Shown here piece by piece: positions 7,305-62,788 of a stretch of 64,000 nt of DNA (positions are counted from its first letter, which is position 1; the number at the start of each line of letters is the position of its first letter). The notes beneath the pieces are model-generated. The model was not told the DNA's origin and ran no database searches. It worked only from the letters and a program-made list of their open reading frames with translations. A program made the translations under genes and the position numbers. The stretch comes from an uncultured Gemmatimonadota bacterium. GTDB taxonomy: Bacteria > JAAXHH01. The DNA is taken from assembly GCA_951812955.1 (NCBI GenBank), contig OX638340.1, positions 544,001 to 608,000 on the forward strand, read 5' to 3'.

Positions 7305-9716
7305 ATGATCGGTAATGAGATGCTGCGCATTCAGCAGATGCGCCACGGGCATGCCCACATCCTCCGTTTTGAAGTCCTCGATCCGAATGCCGGGTGGCGT
7401 ACGGTATTGTCCCACCGGGCCGAAACCAAGCATCGGCCATGGGAAAAGGACGAAGGATCTTCGGTGGAAGATTTGGAGGTCGCAGGCGCGGACGGAGTAG
7501 CAGACGCGGATGGGAAGTCGACCGCTGTCTTCTCGCAGATCGACCTGCAGGATGCCGGGAGGCTGACCCGTCGAGGCGAGATACCTGGCCATCGCATCGA
7601 GGAGCGAATTACTGTCGCATCGGACAATCTGCTTCGCGTCGAGGTGCGCGATCGACTCACCCGGCCCGGCCTACAGCTTGCGCGCCTGATGAACCACTAC
7701 TATTTCATGCCCGACAACCGGGCGATGGGTTACGCGCTGCCTCTGGACTTCGCCTGGCTTCCGGGTCTGCACGAAAACGAGAAGCACGTGGCCGGGGACT
7801 GGTTCTTCCGGTCTCCCTGCGCCATCGTCCTGGCCCACGGTGTGTACGCGGCCATCGTGCCCGATCTGGACCGAATGAACGAACAGCCGACCCTGCCCCA
7901 TGCCCTCGACCTTCGAGCATGGCATCATCCGTGTAGCGGTGAGACCTATGGCCTCCCGAGACTATCCTACGGAATCTGCCGGTGGAGGCCTGACGGGCAC
8001 GTGATCACGGCGCTCGATGTAGCCGCACCGATCGAGGAGACGGAAATCACCTACGCTTTCGATCTGATCATCGGGACGGCTGGAGGTCCCGAATCGATCG
8101 TAGGGCAGGTCACGGAGCTGCTGTGGGATAAGTACGGGGCGCGATACCTGCAGGACATCCGGCCGCAGGTCATGCCCTACGAGGAATACGGAAAGCGGTA
8201 TACCTACAAACATGAACTGAAACTCTGGGCGAAACGCGTAACCCTCTCTGGTAAAGATGGTTACGGAATTGAGAACACGTGGCGACGGGGCGTCAACTAC
8301 CACGCCTGGGAGAACGACTTCCAGTCCGGCTTCGGCATGTTGCACTACGGGCGAAAATGGGCCGACCGGGACCTTATGGCCATTGCCGAGGGCATGGTCA
8401 TTCTGCGCCTTTCCTCTCCAAGACGGGACGGGGCCTTCCCTTGTATATACAATGTAGATACAGCATCCTGGGAAGGAGCCATGTACTGGACCTCATGGCC
8501 CGCTCACCCGATGGATGGCTACGATTTGCAGTCCATGGGCGTAACGGCCTGGTGGATGCTCTACTGGTACGAACAGTATCCCGATCTTGAACGCGGCCCC
8601 GATGTGCTGAACTGGATCATCGATTTCTGCCGGTTCCTGGTCGACGCCCAGCTTCCCTCCGGCGCCATTCCAACCTATTTCGACGGCCAACTCAACCCTT
8701 CGCCCCAATTGAAGGAAGCGGCGCCCACGGCTATTGGAGGTGCGGTGTTGGCGAAGACCGCTGGCCTCATCGGCGATCCGGAAATGGAACGTGCCGCCTT
8801 GAAAGCCGGCGAGTTCATGATGAGGGAAATCGTCCCGCGGACTATGTTCCAGGACTTCGAACTCTTCTATTCCTGCGCGCCGCGACCATTGCACTGGGTC
8901 GATCCGCTCAACGGCATTCCACCGGTCAATACCCTGGCCATACAATGGACCGCGGACCACTTCCTGGCCCTGTACAAACTCACAGAGGACGGGCAATGGT
9001 TTAGCCAGGGCGAGTACTGCATTGGGTTGCTATCCCTGTTCCAGCAGGTTTGGGCACCTAACCGATACGGGAAGGCCTACCTCTTCGGCGGTTTCGGCGT
9101 GATGAACTGCGACGGGGAATGGAACGACGGCAGACAGTCCCGCATGGTTCCGACCTACGCGGACTACTTCCTTTCAACAGGTAAAATTGAATACCTGGAG
9201 CGGGCCGTGGCCGCCAGCCGCGCCGCCTTCGCCGCCATGGACATGGAAGAAAACCATGCTAACGGCATAAATGATTACCGTGTTACGATGGCTGAGCAGT
9301 TGAAAGTGGAAGCCGGTATTGGTCTCTCGCCGGAGAGCATCATGCACGGCGATCCCCGGGTGCATTCGGGAGAGGGTGGCGGCTGGACGGGAATCAATTG
9401 GGGCCCCGGCGGCGGCCTGGCTGCGACGGCCTACCTGGAGAGGCATTTTGGTAATGTGTGGGTAGACGGCAGGACGAAAAAAGCGGTCGCCATCGACGGC
9501 GCCAGCGCGGAAGTGAAGGAATGGACACGCGGGCACATCGCATTGACCGTAACCAACGCGCTGCGAAATCTCGTTTCACCGTATACCGAACGACGAACGA
9601 TCCTGCTTAAATTCGGTTACCTGGATGATGACGCATACACAATCACGCTGAACGGGCGGGACCTGGGTGAACAGAAGCGTGCCACACTGGAGCAGGGGCT
9701 GGCAATCGAGATTTAA
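7305..9716 (+). CDS. hypothetical 803-aa cytoplasmic protein, possibly an (alpha/alpha)6-toroid enzyme
   Basis: Long ORF with GGAG Shine-Dalgarno sequence and no signal peptide. Trp/Tyr-rich repeats (WWMLYWYEQYPD, WTSWPAHPMDGY) are reminiscent of six-hairpin glycosidase-like folds. No catalytic motif recognised. Confidence 0.55.
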   Translation: MIGNEMLRIQQMRHGHAHILRFEVLDPNAGWRTVLSHRAETKHRPWEKDEGSSVEDLEVAGADGVADADGKSTAVFSQIDLQDAGRLTRRGEIPGHRIEERITVASDNLLRVEVRDRLTRPGLQLARLMNHYYFMPDNRAMGYALPLDFAWLPGLHENEKHVAGDWFFRSPCAIVLAHGVYAAIVPDLDRMNEQPTLPHALDLRAWHHPCSGETYGLPRLSYGICRWRPDGHVITALDVAAPIEETEITYAFDLIIGTAGGPESIVGQVTELLWDKYGARYLQDIRPQVMPYEEYGKRYTYKHELKLWAKRVTLSGKDGYGIENTWRRGVNYHAWENDFQSGFGMLHYGRKWADRDLMAIAEGMVILRLSSPRRDGAFPCIYNVDTASWEGAMYWTSWPAHPMDGYDLQSMGVTAWWMLYWYEQYPDLERGPDVLNWIIDFCRFLVDAQLPSGAIPTYFDGQLNPSPQLKEAAPTAIGGAVLAKTAGLIGDPEMERAALKAGEFMMREIVPRTMFQDFELFYSCAPRPLHWVDPLNGIPPVNTLAIQWTADHFLALYKLTEDGQWFSQGEYCIGLLSLFQQVWAPNRYGKAYLFGGFGVMNCDGEWNDGRQSRMVPTYADYFLSTGKIEYLERAVAASRAAFAAMDMEENHANGINDYRVTMAEQLKVEAGIGLSPESIMHGDPRVHSGEGGGWTGINWGPGGGLAATAYLERHFGNVWVDGRTKKAVAIDGASAEVKEWTRGHIALTVTNALRNLVSPYTERRTILLKFGYLDDDAYTITLNGRDLGEQKRATLEQGLAIEI

Positions 9717-9773
9717 AGGATAGCTGAATACCAGTTCCGTTGGCTGTAAGAGTCTATTGGACGGTGGTTCTCT

Positions 9774-10616
9774 GTGAAGTTGACCCCCACGCAACTCGAA
9801 GCGTATCGCCAGGATGGGTTTGTCATTGTTGATTGCCCCTTTCTTGCCGGCTACACGGAGGCTTGCCTACGGGCGGTAGATCGCGTGGCGGCCGATCCCG
9901 TATCAGACGATGTTGATACACGCCGAAACCATTTCCGGCTCGCTCCGCAGATGCCCGGATCATACTGGTGCGCCCTTGACCATTCCCAGCCATTTCTGCA
10001 GATCATTCTCCATCCGGAAATTCTCGAATTGGTTCGGCAACTGACCGGCGACGACGATGTCTTCCTTCGCAATGGCGGTATCAATGAACTGGCGCCTGGC
10101 AACTCGTTCTGGTGGCATCGCGACAGCGAGATGGTTTACACCGAGTACATGCACTACTTCTCTGGATCTTCCGTGGAACAGGGTTGCTTGAGGGTCATTC
10201 CCGGTAGTCATGTGGCCTCTGCGGATGAATTCAAGGAAGAAGCGGAACATCGTAGACGCGACCAGGGATATCCCGAGGAATACTGGGTCGATGGCCTTGC
10301 GGACGTGGAATTACCTGGAGAGGTCCCGCTCGAGGTCAGGCCGGATCAGCTCATCGTTCGCGATTCAAGGATCTACCACGCGACCGGGCTCAATACTACG
10401 AAGGATGCCCGACTGATGAGCCACTGGCTGTTTCGCGCCGGCGGCTGCGACGACCACCGGTTTCACTTCGAGGATGTGCTGACTAAAGAATTGATCGACG
10501 CGCTTTCACCCGAGCAGCAGGATGCGCTGTGGCTGGGCAGGGATTTCGAGATTGCCAAGGTGTACCGTGAAGAACGGGAAAGGGAGCGGGGGAAGGTGGC
10601 GTGGGGGGTGGTGTGA
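9774..10616 (+). CDS. phytanoyl-CoA dioxygenase (PhyH) family Fe(II)/2-oxoglutarate oxygenase
   Basis: N-terminus LTPTQLEAYRQDGFVIV is typical of PhyH. WHRDSE (HxD iron ligands) and distal H in RIYHATGLN. GTG start. Confidence 0.8.
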   Translation: MKLTPTQLEAYRQDGFVIVDCPFLAGYTEACLRAVDRVAADPVSDDVDTRRNHFRLAPQMPGSYWCALDHSQPFLQIILHPEILELVRQLTGDDDVFLRNGGINELAPGNSFWWHRDSEMVYTEYMHYFSGSSVEQGCLRVIPGSHVASADEFKEEAEHRRRDQGYPEEYWVDGLADVELPGEVPLEVRPDQLIVRDSRIYHATGLNTTKDARLMSHWLFRAGGCDDHRFHFEDVLTKELIDALSPEQQDALWLGRDFEIAKVYREERERERGKVAWGVV

Positions 10617-11803: not shown

Positions 11804-12649
11804 TCAATCGATTTCGATCAGAATCCGACAGTGATCGCTTGAACCCCACTCATCGGGTTCGTTCATCGCCTGAGTACGTACACTATGGTGGAATCCCCGT
11901 GAAGCGAATACGTAGTCGAGCTGATTTACGGCGTTTTCTGGCATTCTCGCACGTGGCGCGTAATATGTGGGTGTATTCTTCGTATCTTCAGGTAGTCCAT
12001 ACGGAATGGGATCGGTCCTTCTGCCATCCGGATATCGAGGTCCCACAAACTCTAGACCCAGGGCGTCCATTCGTTCGAAAACAGTACGGTCGCGATCAGG
12101 CAGCACCAGTTTCGTGTCTTTAGACCCGAAAACGGTGTTCAGGTCTCCTGCCGCCAGGATCCGATGGGTGCTTGAATCTAGATCTCCAATAAAAGCTGAG
12201 ATATCAGAGATGATCCGATGTGTCGACGCGTCTGAGTATCCGGCCCACCATTTCGAGTCAACCGAAGCGTGCGGTCTTAACCAACGCGCATACATGGATA
12301 CAGCGATAAAAGGCTCCTGATCGCGGGGAATCACCCGGGCGGCCGCGATGGTACCGATGTCGCTGACGACCATCTCGTCGGGGCCGGTTGCTTTGTATTG
12401 AGGGAGAACTCGCCTGAACCGCTCAACCATGACTCGGTCGGATAGCTTGACGATTATTGGCCAGCGATCGAAATCATCCAGGTCGCTCCACTGGTCGCCG
12501 GTTGTTTTGGTTCCGGTGTCGAGACGCGTGCGCAGATCTGGAGGCACTTTACCAGCCTCTTGAATCAGAGCGACGTCCGCGTTCATCTCAAGTAGTTCGT
12601 CCCACGGTGCTCTTCTCCTTGCGATATTCCAACTGACAACAGTTGTCAT
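11804..12649 (-). CDS. endonuclease/exonuclease/phosphatase (EEP) family protein
   Basis: N-terminus VVSWNIARRR and C-terminus SSDHCRILIEID are canonical EEP ends. GC is visibly lower (~50%) than the flanks. GAGGGGA Shine-Dalgarno sequence. Confidence 0.8.
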   Translation of the reverse strand: MTTVVSWNIARRRAPWDELLEMNADVALIQEAGKVPPDLRTRLDTGTKTTGDQWSDLDDFDRWPIIVKLSDRVMVERFRRVLPQYKATGPDEMVVSDIGTIAAARVIPRDQEPFIAVSMYARWLRPHASVDSKWWAGYSDASTHRIISDISAFIGDLDSSTHRILAAGDLNTVFGSKDTKLVLPDRDRTVFERMDALGLEFVGPRYPDGRRTDPIPYGLPEDTKNTPTYYAPRARMPENAVNQLDYVFASRGFHHSVRTQAMNEPDEWGSSDHCRILIEID

Positions 12650-12658
12650 CCAATCCCC

Positions 12659-13735
12659 TCATCCACCCACCTTCGCCTCGAACGCCGCGATCTCCTCCGC
12701 ACCCTCCAACACACCGATTTCCAGATGAAAATCGCGTACTTCGTCCGGTTCGATGTGCTGCAGGTAGCCGTTCTTGCGGTTCCAGGCTCGGCCGAGCATG
12801 CTGACGTTGCCGGGTTCGATGCCAGTGACGTAGGTTCCCCGGTGGAAGTGCTGCCAGTGGGTAACGATAGGGATTTCGGCCTTGGGGAAGGACCAGTAGA
12901 TTCCGAGGCCGAGGCGGTCGTTGATCAGACCCACGCGGCACAGGCCGGCGGCATCGGCCCGTGGATGAAGGATGTAGACGTCGTCATGCGCTTCGTCCCC
13001 GGGTGCGGAGACTGTAGCATAGGTTTCGGGGCCTACTTCACGGTCTTCGAGCCACTCGGTCGTTTTCTCGCTGTCAATGACGACGCGCGTGCCCTCGTCG
13101 AGGACGGGAAAACCGGGGTTGCAGTGATAGACGAACATCAGGGGTGAGCGATCGACCGATTGATTGTGTATCCGATCGTGAATATGCAGCGATTTTTCGC
13201 CCAGGACCGTCGAGATTTCCCGGGTGAGTTCCAGGTTGGTGCCGAAGACGACGGCCTCCCTGACCTTCCCTCGCACCTTGACGATGTAGTCGTCGCCGTC
13301 CCACTGGCCATCGGTATGTACCTGCCTGGCGGGGAGGAAGGACAGGCGGCCGTGGAGTCCGAGTTCTTCGTTTTCTTCTTCAGGATCGGTCTCCGGATGG
13401 CCTGTGAAGGTCATTCCGCAGCTAAGGACCAGGCCGCCAAAGAACCCGCGCATCCAGCCGTATCCCTGTGGCTCGTAGAAAGAAGGGCCCACGTCGCCCG
13501 TGCTTCCGCGAAAACAAAGCGACATGCCTTTGTAGTGGGCCGAGGCCACGTCGAGTGCACGTCCCGGCAGCAGGGAGAAGCATAGTCCCGATGCGTTGAA
13601 TACCTCGATGAGATCCGCGCCTCGATCGGTTCCCTCGCGCAATTCGCCTTGCCTGGCATGGGCTACCTGGCTCATGTCGCCCACGAGATCGAGCAGTTCC
13701 CTGCGGGTATATTCTTTTCCAAATAGACGCGCCAT
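12659..13735 (-). CDS. DUF4432 / aldose-1-epimerase-like (galactose-mutarotase fold) protein
   Basis: About 358 aa, resembling the mutarotase-like DUF4432 family. Start taken at the ATG (MARLF) with a GGGAG Shine-Dalgarno sequence. The longest ORF starts at the GTG at 13741. Confidence 0.55.
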   Translation of the reverse strand: MARLFGKEYTRRELLDLVGDMSQVAHARQGELREGTDRGADLIEVFNASGLCFSLLPGRALDVASAHYKGMSLCFRGSTGDVGPSFYEPQGYGWMRGFFGGLVLSCGMTFTGHPETDPEEENEELGLHGRLSFLPARQVHTDGQWDGDDYIVKVRGKVREAVVFGTNLELTREISTVLGEKSLHIHDRIHNQSVDRSPLMFVYHCNPGFPVLDEGTRVVIDSEKTTEWLEDREVGPETYATVSAPGDEAHDDVYILHPRADAAGLCRVGLINDRLGLGIYWSFPKAEIPIVTHWQHFHRGTYVTGIEPGNVSMLGRAWNRKNGYLQHIEPDEVRDFHLEIGVLEGAEEIAAFEAKVGG

Positions 13736-13752
13736 AGTCACTTTCTCCCTGT

Positions 13753-15480
13753 TTACTTCTTCTGGATCTTCGCCCAGGTATCGCGCAGGGCGATGGTGCG
13801 GTTGAATACTGGTCCGGTCTGGCCGGTCTGGCCGTACTCTGGCGCAGCCCGGTCGATTGCCGGTCCATCGGACTGCGTTTCGTCGGCATCGATGCAGAAG
13901 TACCCAAGTCGCTCGAACTGGTAATTCACACCGGGTACAGCTTCGGCCAGTCCGGGTTCGACCTTGCAGTCCGTGACGGTCTTGAGCGAGTCCGGATTGA
14001 GTAAGGATCGTTCATCGTCCACTTCACCCGGACGGGGATCCGGATCGCTGAAGAGCCGGTCATAGAGCCGCACGGTCGCGTTCAGGGCGTGGGCGGCCGA
14101 AACCCAGTGTATGGTGCCGCGTACCCGTCTCCCGTCGGGCGTGCTTCCACCTCTGGATTCCGGATCGTAAGTGCAGTGCAGCTCGACAATGTTTCCCTGG
14201 TCATCCTTAATCACGTCCGTACAGGTAATGTAGTACCCGTAACGCAGCCTGACTTCCCGTCCCGGACCGAGCCGGAAAAACTTCCGCGGCGGATCTTCCA
14301 TGAAGTCGTTCCGCTCGATGTAGATCTCGCGAGAAAACGGGACTTCCCGTGTCCCCATTCCCTCGTCTTCCGGGTTGTTCACGGCTTCCATGTGCTCGGT
14401 CTGGTCGGCGGGATAATTGGTGATCACGACCTTCAGGGGATCCAGCACGCCCATGACGCGTGGTGCGCGCTTGTTCAGGTCTTCCCGGATGATGAAATCC
14501 GACAGGGCCATGTCTATGAGATTGTGGTTCTTGGCCACGCCGACACGGTCGCAGAGGGTTCGTATCGAATCGGGCGTATATCCACGTCGCCGCAAGCCGG
14601 ACAGTGTGGGCATGCGGGGATCGTCCCACCCGGAAAGCACGCCTTCCTCGATCAGGGGCCGGTAGAAGCGCTTTGACAGCACGGTGTGCGCCAGTACCAG
14701 CGGCGCAAACTCGATCTGCTGGGGATGGTAGACATCCAGCCGGTCCAAAATCCAGTCGTAGAGCGGCCGGTTGTTTTCGAATTCCAGCGTGCAGAGCGAA
14801 TGGGTGATGCCCTCGATGGAATCCGACAGGCAGTGGGTGAAATCATACATGGGATATACACACCACTTGTCCCCGGTGCGGTAATGATGGGCGTGCCGTA
14901 TCCGGTACAGCACGGGGTCGCGCATCGTCAGGTTCGGATGGCCCATGTCAATCCGGGCCCTGAGGACATGGGTGCCGTCCGGAAACTCCCCGGCCTGCAT
15001 GCGCTGGAACAGTTCCCTGTTCTCATCTCCCGGCCGGTCGCGGTACGGACTGTCCCGGCCCGGTTCCGTGGGTGTGCCGCGATAGTCCCGCATCTCGTCC
15101 CAGGTCAGGCTGTCGACGTAGGCGTCACCCTGGTCGATGAGCTGAAGCGCGTAACCGTACAGCTGATCGTAGTAATCGGAGGCGAAGTATAGCCGGTCTT
15201 CCCAGTCGAACCCCAGCCACTTGATGTCCCGCTTGATCCCCTCGACATAATTCGCGTCTTCTTTCTCGGGATTCGAGTCGTCAAACCGGAGATTGCACAG
15301 GCCGCCGTACTCCTCGGCCACCCCGAAATTCAGGCAGATCGACTTCGCGTGACCGATATGGAGATAGCCGTTCGGTTCCGGGGGAAAACGGGTCATCACC
15401 TTGCCCCCGAACTTGCCGCTTTCCATGTCCGCGTCGATGATCTCGCGTATGAAGTCCCTATACTGCTTTTCTTCGCTCAT
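13753..15480 (-). CDS. glnS: glutaminyl-tRNA synthetase
   Basis: Class I aaRS motifs HIGH ([14 protein letters not shown]) and VLSKR. Overall GlnRS architecture. Start at MSEEKQY with an AGGAAGG Shine-Dalgarno sequence. The longest ORF reaches 15555. Confidence 0.93.
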
Positions 15481-15607
15481 AGCCTTCCTGTTCAGGTTAC
15501 TTTTTGGAGCAGAATAAAGACCGAATAATATAGATCGTCGAGGGGGAAAGGGCAAGGTTTAGAGCAGGGGAGAATGTCCATGCGTTGCCTTAAACAGTTT
15601 TTACGAT

Positions 15608-17014
15608 TTACTGCTTGATGAGTGGCTGATACAGTTCAATGAGTCCGGCTATGTGACTGATTGTGTTCCTTGAGATAGAATTATCCTCGTAGTGGTTGAC
15701 AAGTCGTAATATCTCTTCGATCCTTCTGTCGTCTGGTCTGCCCGTTCTGCTAGAGATGTTATCCAAAGGAGGACCAAGCGCCCCTTTTTCTTCGGACTCA
15801 AAATAACGACGCAGTTCGTATACAGAAACACTCATAGTACCTTTTACATCTGCGTTTTGCATCTTACGATCGGTTAAGTAAACAAATGTCTCTAACTCAT
15901 TAAGATTGTTATTTTGGGTGTCATTCAGATCAAAATTGGCAATTAATTCGTCAATGCGGTTCATTAACTCATACCCTTTTTTATCCCCTCGAACGAATGC
16001 GCGATAAAGCGATGGGTCATGTAACCGTAGCGTAACAAGCAAACTCAGTATAACTGCTCGAAGTGGTTCCCCCTCTTCTATGGATGCTCTTACAAAGGCG
16101 ATTGACCTAATGCATTGTTCGATATCACGAAGTGAAAAACCAAAACAACTGCAGAGAATTGGAAAAAACTCGCGGAACCAATCAGAATCCAATGAATGGT
16201 CTTTGAAAAACCTATCCAACAAATAACGATTAACTAAATGCCTACAATAGGCTTCCGGGTCGATTTCAGGTAAAGTAAACGTAAAATCAAAAAACCGTCT
16301 CAAGTAAACATCTGAATCGATTTTACCATAAACAGACTGGAATGATTTGCATAACTCATCTCGATTGATTCCAAAAATGAAAACCAAACCTGGTATCTCA
16401 AATATGTGTTTAACCCGTTCCAAGAGTTCTATCGCAAAAGTAGGTCTACAACGGTCAAGTTCATCAACAATAAAAACCAGAGGATGCTTGGTTTCTTCCC
16501 TTACTTGAGTAGCAAGTTTTTCGAGATGTTTTCTTAAATCATCACGTTTTTTAACAAGGCTTTCATATCTGCCAAGTACATTGGGGGAGAATAGCCTTCC
16601 CAAGTCCCATCCAGTCGTCCCCTTAACCACAGTGAGCAACCCTGATATCAATCGTCCCCCGTGTTTCTGAATCAGCTTAATTGCACAATTGTATTTACTA
16701 TCATTCACTTGATCTGTCAGTTGTCCAAGAATCGAAGCTAAGGGGTCATCGCCAAAGTCATCATTCCACGCGTTTATATAGACACTTTCAAATCCTCGGT
16801 TTTGAAGATCTTTCTGCCATCGCTTGAGAAAGAACGTCTTACCCGTTCCCCAATCTCCATGTAAACTTACGATAAGGGATGGTCTTTGGGCCTGAACAAG
16901 ATTCGTCAATGTATTCGCAACTTCGGCTCTGCTCATTACATCATCTATCCAGGGGTCCTGTACGTTAATCACAGGTTCTGGGACCTTTAGGATTTTTCTG
17001 TTATCTTCGTACAA
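15608..17014 (-). CDS. KAP-family P-loop NTPase
   Basis: Walker A GDWGTGKT and Walker B FIVDELDR in a KAP-type arrangement. Gene GC is about 40-45% by eye against about 65% in the flanks. TTG start, not well defined. Confidence 0.85.
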   Translation of the reverse strand: MYEDNRKILKVPEPVINVQDPWIDDVMSRAEVANTLTNLVQAQRPSLIVSLHGDWGTGKTFFLKRWQKDLQNRGFESVYINAWNDDFGDDPLASILGQLTDQVNDSKYNCAIKLIQKHGGRLISGLLTVVKGTTGWDLGRLFSPNVLGRYESLVKKRDDLRKHLEKLATQVREETKHPLVFIVDELDRCRPTFAIELLERVKHIFEIPGLVFIFGINRDELCKSFQSVYGKIDSDVYLRRFFDFTFTLPEIDPEAYCRHLVNRYLLDRFFKDHSLDSDWFREFFPILCSCFGFSLRDIEQCIRSIAFVRASIEEGEPLRAVILSLLVTLRLHDPSLYRAFVRGDKKGYELMNRIDELIANFDLNDTQNNNLNELETFVYLTDRKMQNADVKGTMSVSVYELRRYFESEEKGALGPPLDNISSRTGRPDDRRIEEILRLVNHYEDNSISRNTISHIAGLIELYQPLIKQ

Positions 17015-17236
17015 TGAGTCGACCTTTCATTCTGATGATCATGGGTATTGGTTATATCCGACGTTATCGTATTCCTTACTTAGAGGCTTCAAAATCAACA
17101 ACATAGCCTAGATTGAGGCATTCGTCTTGGAACGGATATTTGAGGATAAGTTCATGGATTTATACACTGAATCGGTATGCATACAAATCGCATTTGAAAC
17201 ATGCAAAGCTATCCTACACTAGTCACGTCCGTTTCA

Positions 17237-18397
17237 TCACAGCCCAACCGTACATGCGTGTTCAAGCCCAACCACTTCCACGCGGTCGTGAATCCGGAAT
17301 CGCGATTCGCCGGGGAAAACGACGACTAGCCGGTCTAGTTTCAGGTCGGACAACGCCGTGTGCATGGAACGCGTCATCGAAGGCGCGCTGGATCGCTTGA
17401 ACTCGAACCCGGTTCTTCGACCGCCTTCCATGATCAGAAGATCGAGTTCCGACCCGCGATGGGTAGCCCAGAAATAACAGTCCTCCCAGGAAGCGCCCGC
17501 AATTCGGACCACCTCCTGCATGGCGAAACCCTCCCACGAAGCACCGGATTTTGGATGCCCCATGAGATCTGCCTCGTCCTTCACACCCAACAGCGCGTGT
17601 AACAGCCCGGAGTCCGAAAGATACACCTTGGAGGCTTTGACCTGACGTTTCTTAAGATTCTCGTACCATGGTTGCATCCTGCGCGCTACCAATGCGTCGA
17701 CGAGGGTGTCGAGGTATGAATTTACCGTTGGTGCGGTGACGCCAAGTGCGCGGCCGAGTTCGGCTCCATTCCAGTGATTCCCGTGGTAGTGGGCCAACAT
17801 GGTCCAGAATCGACGCATGGATGCGGCGGGAACAGAAATACCGAGCTGCGGCAGATCTCTTTCGAGGAAAGATCGAATGAACGCCGTCCGCCAGGTAAGG
17901 CTGTTCTCGTCGTTCTGGGCAAGGAACGAAGGAGGGAATCCGCCGCGCAACCAGAGTCGGTCCGTTTCAGCCGTACCCGTTTCGTTGATCCGTAGCGGCG
18001 GTAGTTCATAGTATGCGATCCTCCCGGCGAGCGATTCTGAAGACTGGCGAAGTAGTACGGGTCCCGCACTGCCCAGGACCAGAAAACGGGCCGGTGTACC
18101 TGGACGGTCCGAGAGCACACGAAGCAGGCGGAAAAGTCCTTCGTTTCGTTGGATCTCATCGATTACGACCAACCCGCGCAGCGGTTCCAACGCGAGCTTG
18201 GGATCAGACAGTCGCGTCTCGTCGGTCGGGTCTTCAAGATCGAAGAAGGTGACGGGACGCGCTTCGCCCTCTATCAGTTGGCGCGCGAGCGTGGTCTTTC
18301 CAACCTGCCGTGCCCCGATAAGACAGACCACGGGAAACTGGTTTAACAGTTCGCGAATTGCGGTGAGATGTTGGGTCCGTGGGATCATACGGGACAA
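17237..18397 (-). CDS. AAA+ ATPase with DUF4143 (COG1373-type ATP-binding protein)
   Basis: N-terminus ...LIGARQVGKTTLARQL (P-loop). C-terminal DUF4143-like region. Start is TTG at 18397 or ATG at 18388. Confidence 0.85.
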   Translation of the reverse strand: MSRMIPRTQHLTAIRELLNQFPVVCLIGARQVGKTTLARQLIEGEARPVTFFDLEDPTDETRLSDPKLALEPLRGLVVIDEIQRNEGLFRLLRVLSDRPGTPARFLVLGSAGPVLLRQSSESLAGRIAYYELPPLRINETGTAETDRLWLRGGFPPSFLAQNDENSLTWRTAFIRSFLERDLPQLGISVPAASMRRFWTMLAHYHGNHWNGAELGRALGVTAPTVNSYLDTLVDALVARRMQPWYENLKKRQVKASKVYLSDSGLLHALLGVKDEADLMGHPKSGASWEGFAMQEVVRIAGASWEDCYFWATHRGSELDLLIMEGGRRTGFEFKRSSAPSMTRSMHTALSDLKLDRLVVVFPGESRFRIHDRVEVVGLEHACTVGL

Positions 18398-18421
18398 TAT
18401 ATGTGAAAATCGAAAGCGGCG

Positions 18422-19267
18422 CTATTGATTTTCTACATTAGTCCTCGCCCACGCGGCGAAATGTGGCGGAACGACCACGGGGCGCTTCGACGCTTCGATT
18501 TCCTCTCGAACGCGCTGTGGTATGGTATCTACGTCCACTTCTTCCGCGGTGGCAATTCCGTAATGCTCCAGGAGCGGAACAACGCTTCGGAAGGAATTCG
18601 CCACGTAGGAGTAACCCGGCCAGTCGGAGGCGGCGCCGACCAGCAGTCCGGCATCGAGCGTGGGTTCGGGCAGGCCGGCCTCGGTGAAAACCCGGTACAG
18701 TTCCAGCCCCATGGTGGCATTGGCACCGGACCGTTCGAATACCTCGACGATCCAGTCGCCGAGTTGTCCCATGAGCGGTGTGTCGGGGTGCTTATAGGTC
18801 TCTGTAATGGTGAAATCGATCTCCTGGAACATGACAATACCGCCGGGACGTACCTGGTTTAACAATTGCTTCAACGCCGTAACCGGATCGGGAAGGTACA
18901 TGAGCACCAGGCGGCCGACCAGGGCATCGAACCGGTCTCCAAGGTCCATGGTTTGTACGTCGCCGGCAAGGAACGCCACGTTTTCGTATCCCACCTCCTG
19001 GACGCGCGTCCGGGCGATCTCGAGTATATCGGGATTCATATCCACGCCCACCACTTGCCCTTCGGGCCCCACCAGTTCCGCCGCGATCAACGACACGTCG
19101 CCGGCGCCGCTACCGATGTCCAGTACTCGCATGCCTTCACTGATACCGGCCGATGTCAGAAACCGTCTCGTGATCGGCTCGAAAAGGCGTGACTGTTCGA
19201 TCAGGCGTTCCGTCTCTTCATCACTGCGTCCCATGGTATATTTCCGCTGGCTGTTTTGATCCGTCAT
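18422..19267 (-). CDS. class I SAM-dependent methyltransferase (small-molecule type)
   Basis: Motif I VLDIGSGAGDVSL. Acidic loop after beta2 (VGVDMNPD). Motif post-I LAGDVQ. No DNA-methyltransferase motifs. Confidence 0.85.
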   Translation of the reverse strand: MTDQNSQRKYTMGRSDEETERLIEQSRLFEPITRRFLTSAGISEGMRVLDIGSGAGDVSLIAAELVGPEGQVVGVDMNPDILEIARTRVQEVGYENVAFLAGDVQTMDLGDRFDALVGRLVLMYLPDPVTALKQLLNQVRPGGIVMFQEIDFTITETYKHPDTPLMGQLGDWIVEVFERSGANATMGLELYRVFTEAGLPEPTLDAGLLVGAASDWPGYSYVANSFRSVVPLLEHYGIATAEEVDVDTIPQRVREEIEASKRPVVVPPHFAAWARTNVENQ

Positions 19268-58594: not shown

Positions 58595-60028
58595 TTAATC
58601 TCCCAGGACCCAGATGTCTTTGCCTCCCCCGCCCTGGCTGGAGTTCACGACGAGACTTCCCTCACGCAGCGCCACACGGCAGAATGCCCCCGGGACGATG
58701 CGCGTCTCGCGTCCGTGCAGGACAAAAGGGCGCAGGTCCACGTGTCGCGCCGCGGCGCGGCCCTCGATCATGCAGGGAGCGCGTGAAAGGTCGAGCACGG
58801 GTTGCGCAATGAAATCGGCCGGATTTTCCAGGATCTCGCGGATGTAGGCATCCCGCACCGCAGAGGTCGATCGGGGACCGACCAGCATGCCATAGCCCCC
58901 GGACTCGCCCACCCTTTTAACGATGAGATCCTCCAGATTGTCCAGCGTGTATTCCAGGTCTTCCTCCCTCCGGCAGATGTAGGTTTTTACGTTCATAAGC
59001 AGCGGTTCTTCGCCCAGATAGTAACGTATCATGTCCGGAACGTAGGCGTACACGCTCTTGTCGTCTGCAACCCCCGTGCCCGGTGCATTCGCCAGGGTAA
59101 CGTTTCCGGCCCGATAGACTCCCATCAGCCCGGGAAGTCCCAGCAGAGAGTCCGGACGGAAAACCAAAGGGTCAAGGAAGTCGTCGTCCACCCGCCGGTA
59201 TATGACGTCCACCTTGCGCAGGCCCGACGTGGTGCGCATGTACACGTAACCCCCGTTGACAAGCAGGTCCCGGCCTTCTACCAGGGTCGCACCGATCTCT
59301 TCGGCCAGGTAAATATGTTCGTAGAACGCCGAATTGTATACGCCAGGCGTCAGCAAAACCACGCACGGATCGGGATCTTCCCGGGGTGCGAGTTCCTTCA
59401 GGATTTCACGAAGCAGGCGGCCGTAGTGCTCGACCTCCTGTACCCGGCAACTGCGATAAAGCCTTCGAAGATTGGCCTTCACCGCCTTCCGGTTGGCGAC
59501 CATGTAGGACACGCCGGAGGGCACACGGAGGTTGTCCTCGAGGACGTGGAACCCCTCGTTCGTGCGCACCAGATCCGTTCCACAGACGGCGACATACGTG
59601 CCGTGGGGGACGTTTATGCCCCGCATTTCCACGCGATACTGGGGACAACCGTGCACCATGTCGACGGGAATGACCCCGTCCTCGACGATACGGGCTGATC
59701 CGTAGATGTCGGCCAGGAAAAGGTTCAGGGCTTTCAGGCGCTGGGTAAGTCCGGCTTCGAGTTGCCGCCATTCCCCGGCTGTGATAAGACGGGGTAGACA
59801 GTCGACCGGCATAATTCGTTCATTGGCCTCATCGCCGCCGTAGACTGTAAACGTGATGCCTTCGCTGGAAAAGGAATGGGTGACCCTTTCCTGCATGCGA
59901 ACGAGTTCTTCAACAGGAAGCCTGAGCAGGGAATCGTAGAGCGTACGGCAGTGATCACGGGGGTTGCCGTCGGGCTGGAACATCTCGTCGTAGAAAGCGC
60001 TGTCGATTTCGTAATCTTCAAAGTCCAT
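58595..60028 (-). CDS. circularly permuted type-2 ATP-grasp protein
   Basis: 477 aa, CP_ATPgrasp_2 architecture. AGGAG Shine-Dalgarno sequence. Its stop abuts the alpha-E start. Confidence 0.85.
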   Translation of the reverse strand: MDFEDYEIDSAFYDEMFQPDGNPRDHCRTLYDSLLRLPVEELVRMQERVTHSFSSEGITFTVYGGDEANERIMPVDCLPRLITAGEWRQLEAGLTQRLKALNLFLADIYGSARIVEDGVIPVDMVHGCPQYRVEMRGINVPHGTYVAVCGTDLVRTNEGFHVLEDNLRVPSGVSYMVANRKAVKANLRRLYRSCRVQEVEHYGRLLREILKELAPREDPDPCVVLLTPGVYNSAFYEHIYLAEEIGATLVEGRDLLVNGGYVYMRTTSGLRKVDVIYRRVDDDFLDPLVFRPDSLLGLPGLMGVYRAGNVTLANAPGTGVADDKSVYAYVPDMIRYYLGEEPLLMNVKTYICRREEDLEYTLDNLEDLIVKRVGESGGYGMLVGPRSTSAVRDAYIREILENPADFIAQPVLDLSRAPCMIEGRAAARHVDLRPFVLHGRETRIVPGAFCRVALREGSLVVNSSQGGGGKDIWVLGD

Positions 60029-60099
60029 AACGAGGGTCTCCTATCTTTGGACCAGCGAGATCCTTGTCCTGGAACGGCAGGATATTTCGGGCTCAAAGG

Positions 60100-60451
60100 C
60101 GCCCTTCATACCTTGCTCATGCATTTATCACATCTTTCTCATGCTTTCTACTGCATAAGCATGTTATATGTGGTCATGCAATAGATCAAGCGAAGTTCTG
60201 AATCATCGCGATGCCGGCCAGACACGCAGAATTGATCCTGCACATTTGGAGAATTTCCAAACATTTTCAATACTGAAGTAAATTGAAACATTTTCATTGC
60301 GCTTTCCCTGTGCAGGGGTATTTTGCGTTTTAGTTCGAGTTAGCCAGCCGGTTTTCGTCACAGAATAGACAATTCAACAACCTCAAATTGCTACGCTTTA
60401 ATGTAATATGTTGATAACCGCGGGTTTATCCATCGTGCGGGAGGCGGACGA
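60100..60451. promoter_or_regulatory. AT-rich divergent control region with recurring TCATGC / ATGCA(T) elements
   Basis: CTCATGCATTT, CTCATGCTTTC, CTGCATAAGCATG and GTCATGCAAT lie within about 60115-60180. Strongly AT-rich against 65%-GC surroundings. Confidence 0.35.
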
Positions 60452-62788
60452 ATGGTAATGGAGTTTGGCAATATCCTTACCGCTTACTTCGATTTCATCT
60501 GGATGTCGTTCCTGCTTCTGGGTCCGATGTTGATGCTGGGTCTGCTGCTTTCGGGCCTGATCCACGTTTTCATCTCCCGGGAAGCGATACTCAGATGGCT
60601 TCAGGACGACAGCCTTCGCTCGGTCTCAATCAGTTCCGCCGTAGGCGTTCCGGTACCGCTCTGCAGCTGTTCCGTCGTTCCCGTAGTTGCCGAAATGCGA
60701 CGAAAGGGGGCTTCCCGCTCATCCTGCATGGCCTTCCTGATTACGGCGCCTGAAACCGGGGCCGACTCCATCCTCGTCACGAACGCTTTTTTCGGCTTCA
60801 TCGCCGCCGTTGTGCGACCTGTCATCAGTTTTATCACAGCCGTCGTGGCGGGTATTTTCTGCATCGGCCTGATCCGGGACGATAGTGGCGAGGCCAAGCC
60901 GGAGGAGGAAGACCACGGACACGCCCACCACGACCATGACCACGGTCACGACCATGGACATGACCACGATCATGACCACGATCACTCGGTCCACGATCCG
61001 CTGCTGTCGGACAAGGATGACTGCTATGTAAGCCCCTCCGCCATGAAGATCCTCATGACGAAGTGGATCAAGGGGTTGACTACCGTGGCGTCCACCTGGA
61101 GGTTCGGATCGTGGATCAAACCGGAATTCTACCGGGAGATCATCGGAGAGCAACCGGCGAAATCCGCGAATCGGACCGAACTGGATGAGGTGGAAGAAAA
61201 ATACCCCGGGCTCGATTTCAAGAAGATCGTCAAGCATATCTTCCACTACGGCTTTGTCGAGATCGCCGATGATATACTCTTCGCGCTGCTCGTCGGTATC
61301 GCGCTGGGCGGCGTGCTGTTCCTGGTCATACCGGCCGACCTGATGTCCAACGAATACGCACGCTGGCTTTCCTACCCCGTAATGATCATCGTCGGCGTGC
61401 CCCTTTACATCTGCGCCTCCGCCAGCACGCCGATTGCCGCCGCGCTGGTCGCCCGGGGCGTCAGTCCAGGGGCCGCCCTGATATTCCTGATGACAGGCCC
61501 CGCGACCAACACAAGCACCATCGCCATCATCATGAGTCAGTTCGGCGCGCGTTTCGCGGCCGTATACGTCACGTCAGTCATCGCGGTCACCGCGGTGATC
61601 GGCATAGCCATCGATTTCATACTGGTGGCCACCGGGTTTGCCATTTCCGTCAACCTGTTGCCTTCCGATTCCCCCACGCTTCAAATTCTGCAGTGGGGCG
61701 GCGCGCTCGGGCTGATCGCGCTTATCGTCTGGAGGTACCGCGCCGGCGCCATGCGCAGCGGTTACGAAGACCTCATGCTCAACATCCGACCCTTCTCCCG
61801 GCCATGGCGGAACACGTGGAAGCGGCTGACCCGTGACCGGTCGTTCCGGGGTACGATTTCACCCACCACACCCATGGGCATGATGCTGTGGGGCTTGCTG
61901 CTGGTCCTCTTTCTTGGCAGCGGGTTCACGGCCGTGCCGCCGGGTCACGTCGGATACGGCCGGTTGTTCGGCGAGGTATACTGGAAAGACCTTCAGCCCG
62001 GGCTTCATTACCTGGCGCCGCGCCCCCTCGTCCAGGTCGACAAGTGGCCAGTCAGGGAAGTAAAATCAATTATGTCCGAGACACCGTACGAGTACGTGTC
62101 GGGCGACCTGAACATGCTCACGCTCACCCTGGACGTCCAGTACCGGGTAAACGACCCGTACACGTATCACTACCGTACGGTCGATCCGGAAGAGATCATC
62201 GAAGACGCGGTGCGCGAGCACGTTCGTACTTTTGTCAACGCACGTGACCTGGATCGGCTCCTCACTGCATACCGGGCGGAACTGGAAGATGAGCTGACGA
62301 ATCTCTTCGTGACGGATGCCCGGATGCACGGCGACAAGTCGGTGCTTGGCACCGTCGACCTCGTGAAGGTCAGCCTGCTGAACGTCACCCCGGCGGCGGA
62401 AGCCCTGAGTTCCTTCCGGGAGATTTCAAGCGCCCAGGAAGACAGGGAAAGAATCATCGTCAACGCGCAACGGTTCATGGTGTCCCTGGTGCCGCGCGCT
62501 CACGGCAATGCCGAGTATGAGAAAGAACAGGCCGATGGAGAGGCATTTCGCAAGGTGGCGACCTCCGCGGCGGAAGCGGATGCCATTATGGTCATTTCTT
62601 CTGCCATGCAGACGGCGCCGGAAGTCCTGCGGAACATGCTGTGGCGGGAAAAGTTGGAATCCGCTCTCGCCGGCAATCCCAAGATTATCGTGCCCAACAG
62701 ACAGAGTTTCAACAAGGTCGCGATCTGGAAAAAGAGGCCGGCGGAAGCCGCCGCCCCATCCGCCAAGACAGGAGGTAAAGGCAAATGA
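60452..62788 (+). CDS. fusion protein: ArsP/DUF318-family CxC permease with His/Asp-rich loop, fused in frame to an HflK-like SPFH (band-7) domain
   Basis: N-terminal half has about 8 TM segments, the PLCSCSVVP motif and the loop HGHAHHDHDHGHDHGHDHDHDHDH. After a linker, TM MGMMLWGLLLVLFLGSGF is followed by the HflK-type block VPPGHVGYGRLFGE...PGLHYLAPRP. There is no stop codon or Shine-Dalgarno sequence between the halves. Confidence 0.75.
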   Translation: MVMEFGNILTAYFDFIWMSFLLLGPMLMLGLLLSGLIHVFISREAILRWLQDDSLRSVSISSAVGVPVPLCSCSVVPVVAEMRRKGASRSSCMAFLITAPETGADSILVTNAFFGFIAAVVRPVISFITAVVAGIFCIGLIRDDSGEAKPEEEDHGHAHHDHDHGHDHGHDHDHDHDHSVHDPLLSDKDDCYVSPSAMKILMTKWIKGLTTVASTWRFGSWIKPEFYREIIGEQPAKSANRTELDEVEEKYPGLDFKKIVKHIFHYGFVEIADDILFALLVGIALGGVLFLVIPADLMSNEYARWLSYPVMIIVGVPLYICASASTPIAAALVARGVSPGAALIFLMTGPATNTSTIAIIMSQFGARFAAVYVTSVIAVTAVIGIAIDFILVATGFAISVNLLPSDSPTLQILQWGGALGLIALIVWRYRAGAMRSGYEDLMLNIRPFSRPWRNTWKRLTRDRSFRGTISPTTPMGMMLWGLLLVLFLGSGFTAVPPGHVGYGRLFGEVYWKDLQPGLHYLAPRPLVQVDKWPVREVKSIMSETPYEYVSGDLNMLTLTLDVQYRVNDPYTYHYRTVDPEEIIEDAVREHVRTFVNARDLDRLLTAYRAELEDELTNLFVTDARMHGDKSVLGTVDLVKVSLLNVTPAAEALSSFREISSAQEDRERIIVNAQRFMVSLVPRAHGNAEYEKEQADGEAFRKVATSAAEADAIMVISSAMQTAPEVLRNMLWREKLESALAGNPKIIVPNRQSFNKVAIWKKRPAEAAAPSAKTGGKGK
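60911..60998 (+). repeat. codon-level GACCAC/GACCAT repeat encoding a (H-D/H-G)n tract
   Basis: gaccacggacacgcccaccacgaccatgaccacggtcacgaccatggacatgaccacgatcatgaccacgatcac. Confidence 0.85.

Follow-up and report, generated by a model that had tools for sequence, protein, structure and literature searches.

How long has an AT-rich gene been standing next to a core gene in GC-richer surroundings, and what does it do there? This question is raised by a stretch of 64,000 nucleotides (nt) from an uncultured Gemmatimonadota bacterium (GenBank assembly GCA_951812955.1, contig OX638340.1, positions 544,001 to 608,000; the whole stretch is called the window below, and positions refer to it unless another locus is named), in which a gene for a KAP-family P-loop NTPase directly precedes the promoter of glnS (encoding glutaminyl-tRNA synthetase). 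The initial annotation of the window considered the gene a recent, isolated acquisition. Comparison with related genomes led us to another reading: the gene appears to be an old, polymorphic, stand-alone defence NTPase of the PDC-S20 family that occupies the slot nearest to glnS, a reading to which we assign a probability of roughly 0.55.

The KAP gene and its alleles in related genomes

The gene (15608..17014, minus strand) starts at a TTG codon and encodes a soluble protein of 468 amino acids (aa) that contains HGDWGTGKTF and VFIVDELDRCRP. It is a member of PADLOC family PDC-S20 and represents allele class A1 (see below). Its identity as a KAP NTPase and its length were correctly recognised at the outset: the Pfam profile KAP_NTPase (PF07693) matched residues 29-379 with 134.7 bits (E = 5e-39), where the gathering threshold is 20 bits. 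The Walker A motif (GDWGTGKT, residues 52-59, G52-T59) and the Walker B motif (FIVDELDR, residues 180-187, with D183-R187) are invariant in an alignment of 51 homologues, and so are the motifs DELDRCRP, ELLERVKH and GINRDEL. With a dN/dS of 0.14-0.15 (0.07 for glnS) the gene is under purifying selection, and together with the invariant NTPase motifs this marks it as functional. The TTG start at 17014 is backed by an ATG at the homologous position in the orthologues of loci L001 and L003, in which the N-terminal ILKVPEP motif is conserved as well. The public gene call (P0001, 454 aa) begins at a GTG (16972), 14 codons downstream, which by this comparison is too late; TTG at 17014 is taken as the correct start.

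Eleven further loci were obtained by look-ups of exact proteins and by a glnS-based scan of GTDB species representatives, which together with the window makes 12 loci of one lineage. All 12 share the order SBP/permease, methyltransferase, a variable part, glnS and DUF4432. Across the lineage glnS is 88-96% identical to the window copy (the next-best glnS reaches 66%) and the flanking genes are 88-98% identical. A low-GC KAP gene lies between the methyltransferase gene and the glnS promoter in 10 of the 12 loci (a frequency that our sampling overstates, see below) and is absent from L006 and L007. Where present, it always takes the slot adjoining glnS. The comparison of neighbourhoods that the initial annotation had suggested thus showed that the gene is not strain-specific: low-GC orthologues are found at this locus across the clade, an outcome which that annotation had itself named as speaking for an ancient gene.

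The identity of the KAP proteins does not track that of the flanks among these relatives. Compared with the window, L005 has 96% identity in glnS and 41% in KAP, L253 95% and 45%, L004 93% and 58% and L090 92% and 41%, while in L001 the values are 88.5% and 82%. By synonymous differences in glnS (expressed as pS) the hosts form a subgroup I (the window, L005, L004 and L090) and a subgroup II (L001, L003, L088, L091 and L007), with a pS of 0.39-0.49 between the two. The KAP alleles fall into at least six classes, A (the window, L001 and L003), A' (L004), B (L005, L090 and L091), C (L088), D (L253) and E (L255), and classes A and B were each found in both host subgroups. Within a class but between subgroups, KAP pS (window-L001 0.41, L005-L091 0.45, L090-L091 0.31) is about the same as flank pS (0.37-0.45; 0.45 for the pair window-L001). 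Between classes KAP pS is saturated (0.75-0.86) and amino-acid identity is 42-58%, at a glnS identity of 90-97%. Neighbour joining on 52 family members placed the 16 lineage alleles in one clade against the 36 others (bootstrap 98/100), and the ten clade members whose context was checked (the window copy, P0002-5, P0008, P0010, P0059, P0065 and the L005 allele) all lie at the glnS locus.

These sequence comparisons suggest that the KAP gene was most probably acquired once, by an ancestor of the lineage. The simplest reading of the class structure is that at least six deeply diverged allele classes have been maintained for a long time since, and these were probably shuffled among species by homologous recombination in the conserved flanks. 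The pattern fits a long-lived (trans-specific) allelic polymorphism, provisionally, given the small sampling and simple methods.

The same slot could also have received different KAP genes from outside repeatedly and independently, as a recombination hotspot, without any long-term upkeep of old alleles. The classes are indeed as far apart from each other (41-50% identity) as from family members of other taxa (40-47%), mobility is evident for other cassettes of the locus (pS between L004 and L090 is 0.05 for DUF4143, compared to 0.30 for glnS), and relatives of KAP are encoded on 269 IMG/VR contigs. We nevertheless regard such repeated imports as unlikely, as they would not be expected to leave all 16 alleles in one clade, every checked member of that clade at one locus (among 160 loci of KAP relatives outside the lineage we found no case of glnS adjacency) and a within-class divergence that follows flank divergence across the host subgroups.

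Base composition of the KAP gene and the question of recent transfer

In 300-nt windows the GC content drops from 0.57-0.63 to 0.36-0.46 between ~15.5 and 17.2 kb, a dip without equal anywhere else in the 64 kb. The segment 15559-17236 has 39-41% GC, as against a background of 59.6% (593 windows of 1400 nt; standard deviation 2.2, minimum 52.4). For the KAP open reading frame (ORF) itself (40.8% GC, 0.408) this amounts to z = -8.4, its tetranucleotide distance from the background has a z of 17.6, and its GC content at third codon positions (GC3) is 0.38 (0.380), with values of 0.64-0.76 in the neighbouring genes. The low GC content of the islet, to which attention had been drawn from the start, is therefore real and the profile is not flat. 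The tetranucleotide analysis that had been proposed as a check upholds the anomaly, and the start that had been given for the islet (15556) essentially coincides with the breakpoint of flank homology at 15558/15559. Only the value of ~65% GC given for the surroundings was too high, since these have ~57-63%. The sole other, mild, dip (59700-61000; 0.51-0.53 in windows of 1-1.4 kb) spans the gap between a divergent circularly permuted ATP-grasp gene (58595-60028) and an ArsP/Band_7 gene (60452-62788).

We observed a low GC content of the KAP gene in every lineage locus that carries it (GC 0.40-0.45, GC3 0.36-0.45), next to a glnS gene with a GC3 of 0.76-0.86. To polarise the third-position changes we used parsimony on three-allele trees for classes A and B, a procedure that is approximate at a pS of 0.4-0.6. 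In class A there were 91 AT->GC and 83 GC->AT changes, and in class B 65 and 64, respectively. Compositional pressure as in the host (equilibrium GC3 ~0.78) predicts ~86% AT->GC changes; this was rejected (p = 6e-26) and the data fit a 50:50 ratio. Parsimony has a known bias that would inflate AT->GC changes in an AT-rich gene, so that the test should be conservative. Because the counts in the two directions balance, there is no sign of a drift to host composition. Members of the family elsewhere are ~7-14 GC points below their hsdM/hsdS neighbours. Likewise, more distant relatives of KAP had a lower GC content than their flanks in all 28 metagenome loci (mean -0.08) and in 73 of 75 IMG/VR loci (mean -0.11; both sets within L093-L252), and because relatives elsewhere share this trait, AT-richness is a stable property of the family and not an acquisition clock. 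The composition of the gene is at a stable equilibrium and not the trace of a recent transfer: a GC3 of ~0.37-0.45 has been kept in a genome with a GC3 of ~0.75-0.85, over a synonymous divergence equal to that of the core flanks.

On the branch of the window itself, third-position changes in the core genes run in the ratio GC->AT:AT->GC of 69:24 for glnS (13753-15480) and 47:17 for the DUF4432 gene (12659-13741), and the GC3 of these genes is below that of the relatives (0.76 vs 0.82). The host genome itself may be drifting to lower GC.

The data permit a judgement on the original proposal that this strain recently received a single gene by horizontal transfer from a donor of low GC content, with insertion beside glnS. 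It agrees with the strong compositional anomaly, with the low identity (just 41-43%) of the KAP protein of L005, the closest locus by its flanks (glnS 96%), and with the absence of the gene from L006 and L007. A host-unlike composition is the only mark of a recently acquired islet that we found, as strain specificity, mobility marks and an excess of AT->GC changes were all lacking. Ten of the 12 lineage genomes have the low-GC gene in exactly this place, the KAP pS of the pair window-L001 (0.41) matches that of the flanks (0.45), and the lineage alleles are monophyletic (98% bootstrap). The statement that no integrase, tRNA or obvious flanking repeats mark the insertion stood up to our searches: a tRNA scan and an Rfam scan (leader included) gave no match around the islet, a repeat search gave nothing meaningful or convincing, no integrase, tRNA target or flanking direct repeats were found at the islet as marks of mobility, and no motif is common to the ends of the cassettes. 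A recent acquisition is therefore highly improbable. The GC anomaly is here no sign of recent transfer, and dating of the acquisition on the basis of composition would misread the KAP gene.

Other cassettes and the boundaries of the locus

The interval between the methyltransferase gene and glnS holds more than KAP. It contains KAP alone in L003 and L088, DUF4143 + KAP in the window, L091 and L255, HTH (helix-turn-helix) + DUF4143 + KAP in L001, DUF4143 + SoFic + KAP in L004, HTH + SoFic + KAP in L005, DUF4143 + Fic + KAP in L090 and HTH + a Fic remnant + KAP in L253, while in the two loci that lack KAP we found HigB + HTH + DUF4143 (L006) and HTH only (L007). Because SoFic, HigBA and DUF4143 cassettes occupy the slot in varying combinations, the interval can, by its gene content, be regarded as a small defence hotspot made up of several independent slots for cassettes. 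The 'single-gene islet' of the initial annotation is in fact one cassette of a multi-cassette hotspot. Like other defence-island hotspots it has fixed core flanks and sharp breakpoints (15559 and 18401-18405), with SoFic, HigBA, PDC-S01, PDC-S20 or nothing in between. Usual hotspots swap unrelated systems, whereas here one slot nearly always holds the same family in the form of very divergent alleles.

The right edge of the hotspot is fixed by the glnS promoter (15527..15555, minus strand; TTGCCC, a 17-nt spacer and TATATT), which was the only result of a scan for promoters and terminators. Of seven loci compared, all have TATATT(A) upstream of glnS and six have TTGCC, including the KAP-free L007 but not L006. 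The homology of the flank with L005, L004 and L007 starts at 15558/15559, just upstream of the glnS -35. Between this breakpoint and the KAP stop codon lies the 3' untranslated tail of the KAP cassette (15559..15607, minus strand), a stretch that differs among the allele classes and has no common motif; the scan found no terminator after KAP. The gene for glnS itself (13753..15480, minus strand; Pfam tRNA-synt_1c and both C-terminal domains, true ATG at 15480) forms the core flank, with the DUF4432 gene (12659-13741) adjoining it on the side far from KAP. We found no support for co-transcription or functional coupling of KAP with glnS, which keeps its own promoter in KAP-free genomes.

One could still imagine that KAP has no defence role and is a lineage-specific NTPase with a cellular function, possibly tied to glnS or translation, whose AT-richness tunes expression. 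The constant position directly upstream of the glnS promoter in the lineage, the lack of a detected terminator, the purifying selection and the long residence are in line with this. Its absence from L006 and L007, an allele identity of 41-58% beside flanks of 88-98%, which is unlike housekeeping genes, and the conserved promoter that glnS has with or without KAP all point away from it, as do the remaining genes of the slot (defence or toxin-antitoxin) and the absence of glnS adjacency from all 160 other loci. We consider such a cellular role very unlikely.

Upstream of KAP, the cassette has an AT-rich leader of 222 nt (17015..17236, minus strand; GC 0.39), in agreement with the ~220 bp reported earlier. 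It is conserved with the class A1 allele of L001, with L003 only over the last ~50 nt, and not with L004. No stable RNA fold beyond that of shuffled controls (z = +1.15) and, in a consensus scan, no promoter was found in the leader, which presumably holds KAP's own promoter and ribosome-binding site.

Next follows, on the same strand and as had been annotated, the gene of an ATPase with AAA_14 and DUF4143 domains according to Pfam (17237..18397, minus strand; PADLOC PDC-S01, E = 1.8e-78), the probable start of which is the ATG at 18388. It has a host-like GC content (0.58) and represents an independent cassette. DUF4143 is present in seven of the 12 lineage loci, with or without KAP, and a functional pairing of the two was rejected: six loci have both, four KAP without DUF4143, one DUF4143 without KAP and one neither. 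The methyltransferase-side breakpoint is at 18401..18405 (no strand assigned), just past the methyltransferase stop codon, where blastn homology ends at 18405 (L005) or 18401 (L007). Since homology resumes only there, the variable segment takes in the DUF4143 gene too. The left flank is formed by a core gene for a SAM-dependent methyltransferase (18422..19267, minus strand; Pfam Methyltransf_31/25/11), syntenic in all 12 lineage loci. On this basis, the segment 15559-18405 can be annotated as a small defence hotspot, and the KAP gene as a defence candidate of the PDC-S20 type, encoding a KAP NTPase and starting with TTG at 17014.

Several observations concern the other cassettes. Directly upstream of DUF4143, a remnant of ~110 nt of the 3' end of the methyltransferase gene is found in L006 (8529-8645) and L001 (~1650-1770). 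It sits behind an inserted HigB/HTH (L006) or HTH (L001) cassette, the methyltransferase gene itself being intact, and looks like an insertion scar with target duplication. Fic genes occupy another slot (L004 2752-3975, L005 7041-8279, L090 4737-5906 and L253 4453-4908). Those of L005 and L004 are full-length SoFic genes (PADLOC model, E = 3.5e-118 and 1.4e-117, respectively), that of L090 has Pfam Fic_N/Fic matches only, and in L253 only a C-terminal Fic remnant of 151 aa is left. The low pS of 0.05 between the DUF4143 genes of L004 (1376-2527) and L090 (3306-4457), two loci with a glnS pS of 0.30 and KAP alleles that share ~50% of their residues, suggests that a cassette was transferred recently, the breakpoint lying before KAP.

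Downstream of DUF4432 there is a further variable spot, at which we found a low-GC gene for a Trypsin_2 protein matching PDC-S45 in L003 (6109-6909), a low-GC gene without assignment in L004 (8631-9884), hsdM fragments in L090 (11368-12858) and Peptidase_M78 + DUF4411 in L091 (11919-13482). In the window, the place downstream of DUF4432 is taken by a gene of the Exo_endo_phos family (11804-12649, minus strand), of which L001 has two diverged copies (7540-8382 and 9553-10395; 78% and 61% identity to the window copy). Further away, an ORF of 803 aa (7305-9716, plus strand) had no Pfam match at E <= 1e-5; its 797-aa homologue in L001 is domain-less as well.

Family membership and proposed function

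A search with defence-system profiles, as the initial annotation had advised, gave a full-length match of the KAP protein to the PADLOC PDC-S20 model PDLC04959 (E = 3.6e-97, 324.8 bits, model positions 4-460 of 464). By this match the gene is a member of PDC-S20, a predicted anti-phage family, and so of an already catalogued, thus far unvalidated, kind of candidate. The criterion for the PDC families was 'guilt by embedding' within BREX, DISARM and type I restriction-modification systems, and by definition they are found outside of these systems too; the defence idea for PDC-S20-type genes was catalogued in the same work (Payne et al., bioRxiv 10.1101/2024.01.29.577857). The PDC-S20-like family is large, with 2,302 matches in a word-indexed search and, in an exhaustive search among representatives of 50%-identity clusters, 16,936 (E <= 1e-3), 8,603 (1e-10) or 2,559 (1e-30); the majority of the members have 460-500 aa. 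The window copy resembles the family in its full-length match, in being a single gene of ~470 aa and in having relatives embedded in type I restriction-modification operons, and differs in that it is itself not embedded in a defence system but stands beside a core aminoacyl-tRNA synthetase gene, at a polymorphic locus found throughout the lineage.

The earlier statement that KAP NTPases have no experimentally assigned function is outdated. Defence ATPases of the KAP type include PifA, Tmn, QatA and RdrA, and as single genes EF_KAP and three KAP proteins of metagenomic origin reduced plaquing by up to six logs (PLoS Biol 2026, PMC13552941). Both Walker B and the C-terminal region are needed in these proteins, and abortive infection is not the mode of action of EF_KAP (PMC13552941). 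With the full-length PDC-S20 match and the relatives in type I restriction-modification operons, the original suggestion of a single-protein defence candidate is credible.

The context of those relatives raises the possibility that KAP is not autonomous and assists or guards a type I restriction-modification complex, as PrrC does with EcoprrI, the Hsd proteins being encoded at another place in the genome. All three non-lineage homologues examined (P0045, P0055 and P0046; 43-44% identity) are encoded between hsdM and hsdS with 4-nt overlaps, and of 34 metagenome loci that span 6 kb or more, eight have hsdM within 6 kb of the KAP relative (none of 79 viral loci has). In L090, hsdM fragments occur 2 kb downstream of KAP. 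However, we found no hsd gene beside KAP in any of the 10 lineage loci, and no hsd, Fic or other partner genes in the 64-kb window; about three quarters of the metagenome loci are without hsdM nearby, and PDC families by definition occur outside such systems as well. PrrC, cited as a system that hardly occurs outside type I restriction-modification operons (bioRxiv 10.1101/2024.01.29.577857), resembles KAP in that distant KAP homologues are located between hsdM and hsdS and translationally coupled, and differs in its anticodon-nuclease domain, which the window protein lacks, and in the hsd context, which is missing in the lineage. A dependence on a type I partner is thus rather unlikely. The overlaps themselves, with the hsdS start or the hsdM stop, are at 7458-7461 in L085, 7464-7467 in L086 and 6001-6004 in L087 (all from other taxa) and suggest translational coupling inside type I restriction-modification operons. 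A literature search for the KAP family together with hsdS gave nothing.

An AlphaFold2 model based on the 51 homologues (pLDDT 85, pTM 0.81) has a P-loop core, a long two-helix hairpin that is inserted between the two Walker motifs (helices 105-132 and 143-174; residues 101-175 form an amphipathic helical hairpin) and a C-terminal half that is all-helical except for one small beta-hairpin. Conservation is centred on the NTPase core (residues 21-100 and 175-240), and variability, among the lineage alleles and across the family alike, is concentrated in two surface regions, the hairpin (101-175) and residues 260-467. No transmembrane segment was found in the protein (the top 19-residue Kyte-Doolittle mean is 1.14), which also lacks transmembrane helices inserted in the P-loop domain. 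According to Aravind et al. (2004), such helices are reportedly typical of many KAP members and not obligatory in the prokaryotic ones. A search of the PDB with the family profile gave no sequence match at E <= 1. Matches were obtained by fold comparison only, and by its modelled fold the protein is akin to the ring-forming defence ATPases RdrA and BrxC.

The window protein is not QatA, PifA, RdrA or Tmn, since it lacks defining features of each. RdrA (of RADAR; PDB 8fnt, 8fnu and 8hr8) is an ATPase of ~800 aa that works with the adenosine deaminase RdrB and has 11% sequence identity to KAP; it was rejected on account of size and since no RdrB-like gene lies beside KAP in any locus. The KAP NTPase core is common to the window protein, PifA (which excludes T7 and comes from the F plasmid) and QatA (of QatABCD), with PADLOC E-values of 2.7e-17 for PifA (residues 32-338) and 1.8e-11 for QatA. 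The PifA match covers only model positions 24-344 of 720, i.e. the NTPase domain alone, in a protein of 468 aa, and QatA was rejected because NCBIfam NF041923 scored 48.7 bits where the cut-off is 600 and qatBCD are absent from the neighbourhood (DUF4143 and glnS). Tmn, a transmembrane KAP NTPase, has two transmembrane helices after Walker A, and the window protein has no hydrophobic segment. EF_KAP and the metagenomic KAP proteins are, like KAP, products of single genes with a KAP P-loop domain, Walker B and a C-terminal region without recognisable domain (PMC13552941); compared by description, EF_KAP differs in having two transmembrane helices and a C-terminal region of 322 aa, while the window protein is soluble with a helical C-terminal half.

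From family membership, context and model we infer a defence activity of the KAP protein and a mechanism that could run as follows. The protein would act alone, as a sensor NTPase. Its variable hairpin (~101-175) and variable C-terminal helical half (~260-467) would recognise a phage-derived trigger, which would license the assembly of an RdrA- or ORC-like oligomer. The invariant core would then hydrolyse NTP, and this might block infection by depleting nucleotides or by acting on a phage complex for replication or packaging, which would be remodelled or sequestered. The phages recognised would differ from one allele class to another, and frequency-dependent selection would maintain the classes in the population. 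As the protein has no recognisable effector domain, any one of the downstream steps is doubtful.

Several points weigh against a stand-alone, old defence gene. KAP itself led to nine of the 12 loci (eight homologue look-ups and the window), which overstates its frequency, and in the set found without KAP (the window and three glnS matches) the gene is present in two of four loci. The tree is a neighbour-joining tree of top matches only, with context checked for 10 of the 16 clade members, and the polarisation of changes by parsimony is, as mentioned, approximate. PDC-S20 is a prediction only, and we found no paper mentioning it. PDC status is no proof of function, because a representative of PDC-S01 gave no protection against T4, T5 and T7 in E. 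coli B. The embedding of relatives among hsd genes may mean that a restriction-modification partner, of which there is none in the window, is needed. The validated EF_KAP, Tmn and PifA are unlike the window protein, which has neither a transmembrane helix nor a recognisable effector domain, so that the final inhibitory step is a guess.

With the preferred reading of an old, polymorphic defence NTPase, we tentatively put forward, at odds below even, that the locus represents a trans-species balanced polymorphism of a single-protein immune sensor, with several allele classes that predate the split of the host species and are maintained by frequency-dependent selection from phages, and with an AT-richness that is actively kept (e.g. 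for silencer binding or throttled expression) and not inherited from a donor. If this is true, a low GC content could not be trusted as an indication of recent transfer in defence genes. KAP relatives are below the GC content of their flanks in 101 of 103 other loci. New relative to the catalogue is the evolutionary pattern, a locus with a single slot throughout the lineage, six or more allele classes and a base composition whose equilibrium is far from the host's. The PDC-S20-like proteins constitute a large family without effector domain, and the six or more allele classes, which share one genomic setting, would provide a natural panel on the phage specificity of the hairpin and the C-terminal domain.

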